Assembly (NCBI GenBank): GCA_963790025.1
Contig: CAWBMP010000004.1
Coordinates: 32,001 to 96,000 of the forward strand
Length of the DNA stretch: 64,000 nt
Source of the DNA: Nitrospirota bacterium
GTDB taxonomy: Bacteria; Nitrospirota; Thermodesulfovibrionia; Thermodesulfovibrionales; Dissulfurispiraceae
Direction of reading: 5' to 3'
In this document: positions 11,263-38,226 of the stretch, in pieces
Layout: each line of letters opens with the position of its first letter
Numbering within the stretch: position 1 is the stretch's first letter
The notes under the pieces: model-generated
The model's database searches: none
What the model saw: the letters and a program-made list of their open reading frames with translations, nothing else
What the model was told of the DNA's origin: nothing
Made by a program: the position numbers and the translations under genes

Positions 11263-11315
11263 CAAAAACAAGGGGGACACTTCCCAAAATATGGGAAGTG
11301 TCCCCCTTGTTTTTG
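11263..11315. repeat. Perfect 24-bp-stem palindrome (REP-like; may also terminate the mla operon)
   Basis: caaaaacaagggggacacttccca-aaata-tgggaagtgtcccccttgtttttg. Confidence 0.85.
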
Positions 11316-15481: not shown

Positions 15482-15513
15482 AATATCACGACCTGTTACA
15501 ACTATTCAGACAC

Positions 15514-15693
15514 TGTAATGAAGGATATGTCTCTGAAGCGAATCGCGGAGCTTTGGCAACTGTTCCTGGCGAAATGAGCGTCAAACAGCCGCAATGTTTG
15601 AGCCCGAAAGGCGAGTTTTGCGGCTGCAGCGATTGGACCTTTAGAATAGTCAAAGCGCAGCGTCTGAGCGTAAGAGACATTTACTTCATCACA
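15514..15693 (+). repeat. Rod-like structured repeat/MITE-like element, copy 1
   Basis: Nested inverted repeats around cagccgcaa-tgtttga-gcccgaaaggc-gagtt-ttgcggctg; termini shared with 38168-38226. Confidence 0.75.
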
Positions 15694-15750
15694 CTGTCAT
15701 TTGTAAGATAACTTCCGTACAGTTTATAGTAAACAATCGGGACATGGCAA

Positions 15751-19324: not shown

Positions 19325-19417
19325 TGGCGGAGAGGCAGGGATTCGAACCCTGGGTGGGGTTTGACCCCCACAACCGCTTAGCAGGCGGCTGCCTTCGACC
19401 GGCTCGGCCACCTCTCC
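19325..19417 (-). tRNA. tRNA-Ser(GCT)
   Basis: GGAGAGG acceptor stem, anticodon loop CT-GCT-AA, long variable arm, GGTTCGAATCC, encoded CCA. Confidence 0.97.
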
Positions 19418-31183: not shown

Positions 31184-31383
31184 GCGCATAGCCTGGAGAC
31201 AAGCAGTGTCGGCCTGAACGAAATTGATGTTTTTCGTTCACAGTTCTTGGCGAATGGAACGTGTAGCAGCCGTAACTGTTTGAGCCGGAGGCGAGTTTTA
31301 CGGCTGTAGTGGAATGAGCCGTAGAACTGTCGAAAAACATCATCTGAGTGAAAGACGGCGCTGCTTGACTCCAGGCTATGTGC
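31184..31383 (+). repeat. Rod-like structured repeat element, copy 2
   Basis: Stems gcgcatagcctggag/ctccaggctatgtgc, tgatgtttttcg/cgaaaaacatca, acagttct/agaactgt, cagccgtaa/ttacggctg; same apical core as 15514-15693. Confidence 0.78.
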
Positions 31384-37988: not shown

Positions 37989-38020
37989 AAAATCCCCTAT
38001 CCCTGATGGGGGAATAGAGG
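37989..38020 (-). terminator. Riboswitch expression-platform terminator
   Basis: Minus strand cctctattccc-ccatca-gggatagggg-attttt between aptamer and thiS ATG. Confidence 0.6.
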
Positions 38021-38027
38021 ACTGTCT

Positions 38028-38118
38028 TCCATTCCCTACGCCGGAATTATCCGGATCAGGTTCAAGGGGTATATTCCAAAATAGGAAAACTCTCAGGCCT
38101 AAGGCCTCCCCCATGGTT
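38028..38118 (-). ncRNA. TPP riboswitch
   Basis: GGGG...GCCTGAGA...ATACCC...GAACCTGATCCGGATAAT.CCGGCGTAGGGA upstream of thiSGEC. Confidence 0.95.
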
Positions 38119-38167
38119 AATTGAATCATATACCGAAAAAATTATATTTGTCAATAAGAAAGGAAGA

Positions 38168-38226
38168 GTAATGAAGGATATGTCTCTTCCGTCTCAGACG
38201 CTACAGAGACACATCCTTCAATACAC
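38168..38226 (-). repeat. Ends-only derivative of the 15514-15693 element
   Basis: gtaatgaaggatatgtctct identical to 15515-15534; reverse complement reads gtctctgtagcg|tctgagacggaagagac. Confidence 0.75.

Follow-up and report, generated by a model that had tools for sequence, protein, structure and literature searches.

A stretch of Nitrospirota DNA (64,000 nt in length and hereafter referred to as the window) holds two long hairpins, designated copies A and B, and the question they raise is whether such structures are genes for a structured RNA or copies of a mobile element. An initial annotation, made from the letters of the window, had described them as a two-copy element with shared loops and differing stems, and considered them to be either a candidate non-coding RNA or a single-stranded DNA mobile motif. 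Both loci are real, but they are not simply a pair: they belong to a large family, of which a third, shortened copy is also present in the window. We consider it likely that the members of this family, here termed rods, are MITEs, that is, imperfect palindromes of ~180-210 bp which in this genus are moved in trans by a DDE transposase of the IS1182 family. The rods are a new family of a familiar kind, the MITE, with a conserved hairpin core.

The motifs on which the original description was based were all found at the two loci. These included CTGAAGCGAA and TCTGAGCGTAA in copy A, CTGAACGAAA and TCTGAGTGAAA in copy B, the sequence TTCYTGGCGAA, the apical TGTTTGAGCC..GGCGAGTTTT, and stems that differ between the copies while remaining complementary. 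When copies A and B were aligned the mean column identity was 78%, with the quoted loop motifs identical and the stems different yet still able to pair. The + strands of both loci fold as long rods with RNA parameters, at -71.9 kcal/mol for copy A (z -3.85) and -107 kcal/mol for copy B (z -9.41), whose hairpin spans its full length (31184-31383), and in neither case did any of 200 shuffled sequences fold as well. The - strands fold too, as do those of any palindrome. A covariance model (R1), built from 46 copies of three congeners, scored the reverse strands at 21.3 bits for copy A and 13.8 bits for copy B; its scores for the rods themselves are given with their coordinates in Table 1.

The overall plan of the rod is that of a palindrome interrupted by large internal loops. 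In copy A, the outer stem (helix 1) is formed by the first and the last 21 nt, each of which matches the other in reverse complement. The two strands of each large loop are direct repeats of one another, with AGCG-containing motifs on the same strand, and for this reason they are unable to pair; the strands of loop 1 in copy A, for instance, are mutual direct repeats and non-complementary. In the tip domain of the same copy, two GA steps lie opposite one another as mismatches. The element is 180-210 nt long, and when both strands were checked the only ORFs found to overlap copies A and B were short ones.

Table 1. Positions of the rod copies in the window and of the parts of copy A.
Feature	Position	Strand	Remarks
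Copy A of the rod, 182 nt	15513..15694	+	Old, ends worn; R1 180.7 bits, E 4e-38
Terminal-repeat remnant (IS1182-type), ATTCAGACA, left of copy A	15504..15512	+	Read against intact CTGCAATTCAGACAGTG ends
Copy A outer stem, 5' arm	15513..15533	+	Pairs with 15674-15694; sequence variable among subfamilies
Copy A outer stem, 3' arm	15674..15694	+	From fold and alignment
Copy A loop 1, 5' strand, TGAAGCGAAT	15534..15543	+	Opposite 15663-15673 (TCTGAGCGTAA)
Copy A loop 2, 5' strand, CTGGCGAAATGAGCGTCAAA	15566..15585	+	Opposite 15627-15642; sequence conserved order-wide (alignments A2, A3)
Copy A tip domain	15586..15626	+	Stem CAGCCGCAA / TTGCGGCTG around TGTTTGAG-hairpin-CGAGTT
Copy B, divergent subfamily	31184..31383	+	Outer stem longer and different; R1 138.1 bits at 31193-31374
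Shortened copy, 61 nt	38166..38226	-	Outer stem and loop 1 only; R1 38.3 bits; from repeat search and fold

The claim that the + strand is under selection as a single-stranded fold was upheld by the covariation counts, the excess of G:T mismatches and a comparison of the stability of the two strands. Double changes were present in 36 of the 49 predicted pairs among the 46 copies from three congeners, and in 43 of the 49 pairs among 35 copies drawn from 35 genomes; for helix 1 they were found in all 16 pairs. In the 35-genome alignment, which was fitted to the model and to that extent favors pairing, 94.7% of the cells pair, versus 71.0% in shuffled alignments (0/500 of which reached the observed value) and 37-44% when the partners were slid. 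In helices 7 and 8 of the tip domain pairing was 98-99%. There is almost no variation in the loops and inner stems among the 35 genomes, whereas the sequence of the outer stem, though it remains complementary, differs in nearly every lineage and even among copies within one genome. Hence the termini differ between lineages and the interior is conserved phylum-wide, which is the reverse of the usual MITE pattern.

With regard to the strand, mismatches in the stems were G:T rather than A:C at 83:19 in the sequence-only alignment (A2) and 83:20 in alignment A3, G-A mismatches outnumbered C-T mismatches (24-27 versus 11-13), and the given strand was more stable than its complement in 46/46 and 35/35 copies with RNA parameters (all 81) and in 45/46 and 34/35 copies with DNA parameters (79 of the 81), with the proviso that the copies are related and these counts do not represent independent events. 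Consistent with the designation of the + strand as the folding strand in the initial annotation, the difference in free energy between strands favored it by ~12-13 kcal/mol with RNA parameters and ~4.6 kcal/mol with DNA parameters. Several GGA and AGCG motifs are present in the loops on one strand only, TAGCG is found twice in the loops, and a motif with GTAG in it (CTGTAGCG) hardly varies. At the tip, a GNA triloop is present in 26 of the 35 copies (closed by C-G in 20) and in 22 of the 46, and a GNRA tetraloop in none of them. Loops of the d(GNA) type with a C-G closure are reported to be very stable in DNA (PMC3201870, PMC13037366).

The element had originally been left without a family, and our searches were in agreement. 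With Rfam 15 at curated thresholds across the whole window, no family was identified at either rod locus; when matches with E up to 10 were allowed, copy A had only RybB and greA (15.9 and 13.5 bits, against cut-offs of 40 and 60, respectively), and for copy B there was no match. A literature search returned nothing on such repeats in Nitrospirae or Thermodesulfovibrio, nor on IS1182-derived hairpin MITEs. The initial annotation had named a match to a described Rfam family, or a lack of homologues and covariation, as outcomes that would count against it; what we found instead, in addition to the strong covariation described above, was a large number of homologues.

A BLAST search of 41 related genomes with copy A produced matches in 18, with 21-30 matches in each of three congeners. 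A covariance-model search had been proposed in the initial annotation, and R1 recovered both window loci and many further copies. There were 21 R1 matches in the window's own genome (G000; 3.45 Mb, 5 contigs), corresponding to 19 loci and 2 reverse-strand echoes, 28 in G002 and 44 in G004. No rods were identified with R1 in G006 or G008 (the latter genome being 74% complete), both of which carry IS-derived elements. Of the rods of G000, 11 are full-length and of the main type; the others include copy B, two further copies that are divergent or damaged, some fragments, and five hairpins of 60 nt. These hairpins retain the outer stem and loop 1 only, consistent with a deletion between the two loop-1 direct repeats.

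The family extends well beyond the genus. Full-length R1 matches were identified order-wide in 52/151 genomes, representing 32 of 80 genera and 10 of 13 families, and in a phylum-wide sample R1 had matches in 37/151 genomes. Three families outside the order had R1 matches in 3/6, 7/12 and 15/27 genomes, and three other families of the phylum had none (0/11, 0/18 and 0/27 genomes). A scan of public genomes with an IUPAC pattern yielded a few true-looking matches whose titles were those of Nitrospirota or Nitrospirae MAGs, the pattern being so loose that the listed matches are mostly due to chance. One DNA metagenome run was found to contain part of the stretch. Parts of the rod also occur by themselves or in new combinations: the tip domain (model positions 68-120) is found solo at many loci elsewhere in Nitrospirota, with many 53-nt matches in genomes of family f19, and in genome G174 (L308:3026-3531, L309 and L310) the tip domain and a full rod together make up a 505-nt non-coding composite repeat.

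The portion of the initial annotation that had proposed a mobile motif was borne out by the dispersal of the family, by sites that are empty in congeners, and by terminal repeats and target duplications in a congener. Rod copies are mostly intergenic. The site orthologous to that of copy A has no element in the congeners G007 and G004. Copy B is placed between an etfB-like gene and acpS, antisense to both, and its site is without the element in five congeners: the gap between the two genes is 265 nt in the window, versus 13-47 nt in G002, G004, G006 and G008 and 134 nt in G007. Similarly, in genus g38 orthologous sites are filled in some species and empty in others, and within the genus of the window the number of copies ranges from 0 to 44. 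Two orthologous-site alignments from family f11 were too diverged for the junctions to be placed.

Several other orthologous sites illustrate how rods vary in place. At the site of L266, the copies L304 (G092:C188) and L305 (G164:C103), from two species, have the same outer stem (AAATGCAGGACT.G) and the core is reverse-complemented in one of them, which represents either a flip of the core through recombination between its own arms or two hits at one site. Among the copies L261-L277 of G047, the same few tip variants recur in copies with different arms, indicating that the tip hairpin is modular, and at the L264 site the tips differ between the orthologous copies of G047 and G102 though the surrounding locus is 93% identical. 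These two observations on the tips suggest exchange between copies. At this same site, where G047 and G102 have a rod, G092 has a different repeat-like insert of ~100 nt (L301, G092:C233), and this intergenic site is a possible hot spot of insertion by small elements.

The assignment of a transposase is based on the ends of the younger copies in G002. These end as CTGCA-ATTCAGACAGTG...CACTGTCTGAAT-TGCAG with direct repeats flanking, and their terminal 17 nt (CTGCAATTCAGACAGTG) are common to the rods of G002 and a 2.0-kb IS1182-family element of G008. Flanking direct repeats, scored blind and counted as target duplications when 7 or more of the 9 flank positions matched, were identified for 18 of 26 elements with such ends, among them 12/16 rods (from G002) and 3/3 full insertion sequences (from G008). 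In the control, in which left and right flanks were mismatched, such a repeat was present in 9 of 650 pairings. The parent element of G008 (L281:404-2403; G008:C2:435003-437002) has a perfect 9-bp duplication, AAATGAAAA, and an ORF of 530 aa that, at 276.1 bits, exceeded the cut-off of 270 for the NCBIfam model NF033551 (IS1182 family transposase) and had Pfam matches to DDE_Tnp_1_6 (94.1 bits), DUF772 (52.1 bits) and DDE_Tnp_1 (49.1 bits). The same IS1182-type ends are found on a second MITE of 183 nt (L099:485-667), the interior of which is unrelated to that of the rod. It has 20-28 matches in each of G001, G002, G006 and G008 and none in G000, and BLAST located its halves 2.0 kb apart at no fewer than five places in G008, which are copies of its 2.0-kb parent insertion sequence, the L281 element among them.

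The rods are thus short and gene-less, with shared terminal inverted repeats, a duplication of fixed length, and dispersed, polymorphic copies, all of which are characteristic of MITEs. Given the IS1182-family terminal 17 nt, the ~9-bp duplications and the empty sites in congeners, we favor mobilization in trans by a DDE transposase, in which the IS1182-family enzyme would act on the 17-nt CTGCAATTCAGACAGTG ends and move the rod by cut and paste, with each new copy gaining ~9-bp duplications. It is important to note that the MITE features come from the younger copies in congeners and not from the window copies themselves. An intact terminal repeat is absent from copies A and B, copy A having kept ATTCAGACA on its left side only; when compared with the intact ends of the G002 copies and the G008 insertion sequence, its right tip is gone except for TGTC at 15695-15698. 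No target duplication is recognizable at either window copy, nor is one visible for the copies of G000, whose only constant flank base is an A at position -1, and neither the 2.0-kb element of G008 nor its transposase has a match in G000. Since the genome has no such insertion sequence or transposase, the tips are worn and there is no recognizable duplication, the window copies are shown to be relics that now merely occupy intergenic DNA.

Some observations are at odds with the MITE reading. An IS1182-type transposase was identified in only 10/151 genomes of the order, compared with 52 for the rods, and the two occur together in 7. A parent element, with its rod arms separated by a kilobase, was identified neither in the 41 relatives nor in five genomes of family f11, and G006 and G008 have IS-derived elements and no rods. 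In family f11 no conserved terminal repeat and no target duplication were seen, in a search where the folding of wide flanks gave spurious outer pairs. Because the transposase is so patchy, and because the copies of f11 lack conserved tips or duplications, the core is treated here as a module older than its present vehicle. The search for a parent element also covered 14 regions next to unpaired terminal repeats, in which there was no full-length element between IS-type ends; eight ORFs beside such repeats were ordinary non-transposase genes. Other IS1182-like elements in the order were searched for ends of the ATAAGCAGG type, and no link emerged.

In addition, cut and paste of a duplex needs only the tips of an element, yet the core of the rod is conserved and strand-specific, and the movement of double-stranded DNA by a DDE enzyme is not in itself a reason for one strand to fold better than the other. 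We infer from the purine-rich core loops, the compensated stems and the better fold of one strand that the core is under a second constraint, as a single-stranded hairpin of that strand. As to whether the folded form is DNA or RNA, we lean tentatively toward DNA. A role for the core as a DNA hairpin is possible, by reasoning from its sequence and fold, and we speculate that the hairpin might help IS1182-type transposases to find or handle the element, in which case master copies that had lost the fold would cease to spread. A transposase that reads shape is plausible since two members of the IS1182 family, IS1272 and TnSha1, are reported to use hairpins as insertion targets, with sequence mattering little (PMC4923244); according to the same work, IS1272 cuts its hairpin targets bluntly and without duplication, whereas the rods have ordinary 9-bp duplications and no hairpin was noticed at their target sites. 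A wider and more doubtful proposal is that the core is an old, self-standing single-stranded module, for which the best candidate would be a DNA hairpin whose G-A steps are sheared and whose tip is c(GNA)g, read for its shape by IS1182-type transposases or by a host replication or repair factor, and that it has been acquired repeatedly by mobile elements of Nitrospirota since it raises their mobilization in trans.

The covariation, the loops conserved across the phylum and the preference for one strand would also be accounted for if the rod were primarily a structured RNA riding in a MITE, either a multi-copy small RNA or an element that ends or stabilizes transcripts, with selection acting on the transcribed + strand. 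The larger stability gap with RNA parameters, the GGA and AGCG motifs confined to the loops of one strand, and a core that far exceeds the IS1182-type ends in age and in spread are in keeping with that idea. We nevertheless regard it as improbable, given that the rods have no Rfam match, that nothing resembling a promoter or a terminator is present within copies A and B and no conserved promoter was seen in the alignments, that the sites are polymorphic between species and the core is found in either orientation at one site, and that the tip loops are GNA triloops and never GNRA. The orientation of the rods is a further argument against an RNA. Relative to co-directional neighbors, the folding strand was antisense in 8 cases and sense in 3 in G000, 9 and 3 in G002, 5 and 6 in G004 (G002 and G004 being hand-read, with ORFs inside the element ignored), 12 and 0 in G047 plus G139, and 17 and 8 when one copy was taken per genome. 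Pooled, and with crude ORF calls, this amounts to ~50 antisense versus ~20 sense, after removal of one locus of the one-copy-per-genome set that was shared with the G047/G139 set. As the folding strand is mostly antisense, read-through transcripts would mostly carry the complement, which folds more poorly. Rods are also found between divergent and between convergent genes.

The same bias in orientation bears on a different proposal, namely that the rod is a DNA structure kept by the host, such as a cruciform or a protein-binding site for chromosome organization or replication, and spread by several unrelated transposases. The bias is relative to gene direction, which on the window's contig also follows GC skew, a skew that is noisy in G000 with the directions of replication and of genes inseparable. 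It is in keeping with this proposal, as are a core conserved phylum-wide between lineage-specific ends and the persistence of that core in many genomes without the transposase. The host, however, has not kept orthologous sites (both window sites are empty in congeners), the copy number within the genus varies from 0 to 44, and deleted and truncated copies are common, and we find this proposal very hard to credit. Equally slight is the likelihood that the rods are REP/REPIN-like and are moved as single-stranded DNA by an HUH (Y1) transposase of the RAYT or IS200 type, even with the preferential folding of one strand, the GTAG-containing motif, 11 Y1_Tnp matches in G000 and no target duplication visible in the copies of G000 or family f11. 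HUH elements are not known to make target duplications or terminal inverted repeats, and the young rods have ~9-bp duplications and terminal inverted repeats identical to those of a DDE insertion sequence. Moreover, the link to an HUH or GIY-YIG enzyme that had been suggested for the rods was not supported, for the Y1 genes are multi-copy, self-contained units of ~990 bp with almost no flanks, none of which adjoins a rod, the nearest being 12-17 kb away. Among the eleven units in G000 are those at C5:249351-250331, C4:1215123-1216097, C5:55813-56811 and C4:751461-752450, with ORFs of 285-306 aa; judged by their sequences, which fall into a few near-identical groups, they are apparently mobile on their own.

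Comparison with known systems assists in placing the rods, which we regard as MITEs, among bacterial repeats. They are like IS1182-derived MITEs in having the terminal 17 nt of the 2.0-kb congener element, ~9-bp duplications, no ORF and many copies, and differ in that the core has no relation to the parent's interior and occurs far more widely than the transposase. The ERIC/IRU repeats of enterobacteria and the Correia elements of Neisseria are short, gene-less, intergenic, MITE-like repeats with inverted ends that form long hairpins and occur in either orientation. The rods are likewise short, gene-less, dispersed, intergenic, hairpin-forming and found in either orientation. However, they have no sequence relation to these repeats and no Rfam match, it is the interior rather than the ends that is conserved, their purine-rich loops are specific to one strand, and members of the family occur across much of a phylum. 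REP/REPIN sequences are dispersed palindromic repeats associated with RAYT transposases, in which one strand is active and folds and a GTAG-like motif is present. As dispersed palindromes with one folding strand and a conserved GTAG-like motif the rods are similar; an identity with REP/REPIN was rejected because no Y1_Tnp gene adjoins a rod, and DDE terminal inverted repeats and target duplications are present. Elements of the IS200/IS605 type have no terminal inverted repeats, make no duplication and have an invariant short sequence on the 5' side of their left end. This type was rejected as well, given the inverted ends and duplications of the rods and that only the A at -1 is constant in G000. 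Lastly, single-strand origins of the ssoA type are rod-like single-stranded DNA hairpins of rolling-circle replicons with a TAGCG-type loop motif. The two TAGCG occurrences in the loops of the rods resemble this motif, whereas the rods are chromosomal and dispersed.

One copy outside the window has an unusual location. The best-scoring rod of G000 (G000:C4:1351405-1351586; L231:1501-1682) is situated in frame inside an intact cbiA/cobB-like gene of 488 aa (L231:857-2323), where it falls within the linker that joins the CbiA domain (residues 4-178) to the GATase_3 domain (residues 282-474). The ortholog in G007 (459 aa) has a shortened remnant of a rod, its residues QCNEGCVS being the translated outer-stem repeat (GTGTAATGAAGG...), and the orthologs of G004 (450 aa) and G006 (439 aa) are without a rod. 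The palindromic elements of Rickettsia are found in frame inside protein-coding genes, and this rod, which has left its gene open, resembles them in that respect. The rods differ from them in that there is a single in-gene case, most copies being intergenic, and in that there is no sequence relation.

These findings have consequences for annotation. The window loci should be marked as repeats or MITE relics and not as regulatory RNAs of prmA, the radical-SAM gene or the etf operon, and the R1 model could be used to mask such sites, of which Nitrospirota MAGs would have hundreds. They also illustrate that strong covariation together with conserved loops is not by itself proof of an RNA gene. 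With hundreds of copies that have compensated stems, the rod family is a natural data set, and it bears on why some MITEs keep a hairpin of one strand and on whether IS1182-family transposases read the shape of DNA.

Other features were noted in the window in the course of these analyses. Just upstream of copy B, at 31447-31418 (-), is a promoter-like site with 11/12 consensus positions (TTGAAA-18-TATAAT), and if transcription began there, the leader of the etf operon would contain the complement of copy B. A TPP riboswitch was identified at 38016-38122 (-) with an Rfam score of 78 bits (cut-off 54.3), and on that strand the shortened rod precedes it by 44 nt. A perfect palindrome of 49 nt at 11265-11313, with runs of A and T on either side, looks from its sequence like a two-way terminator; it is unrelated to the rods, although it scores 26 bits with the model on both strands. 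Lastly, a tRNA gene with a long extra arm is present at 19328-19417 (-), with an Rfam score of 57.9 bits.
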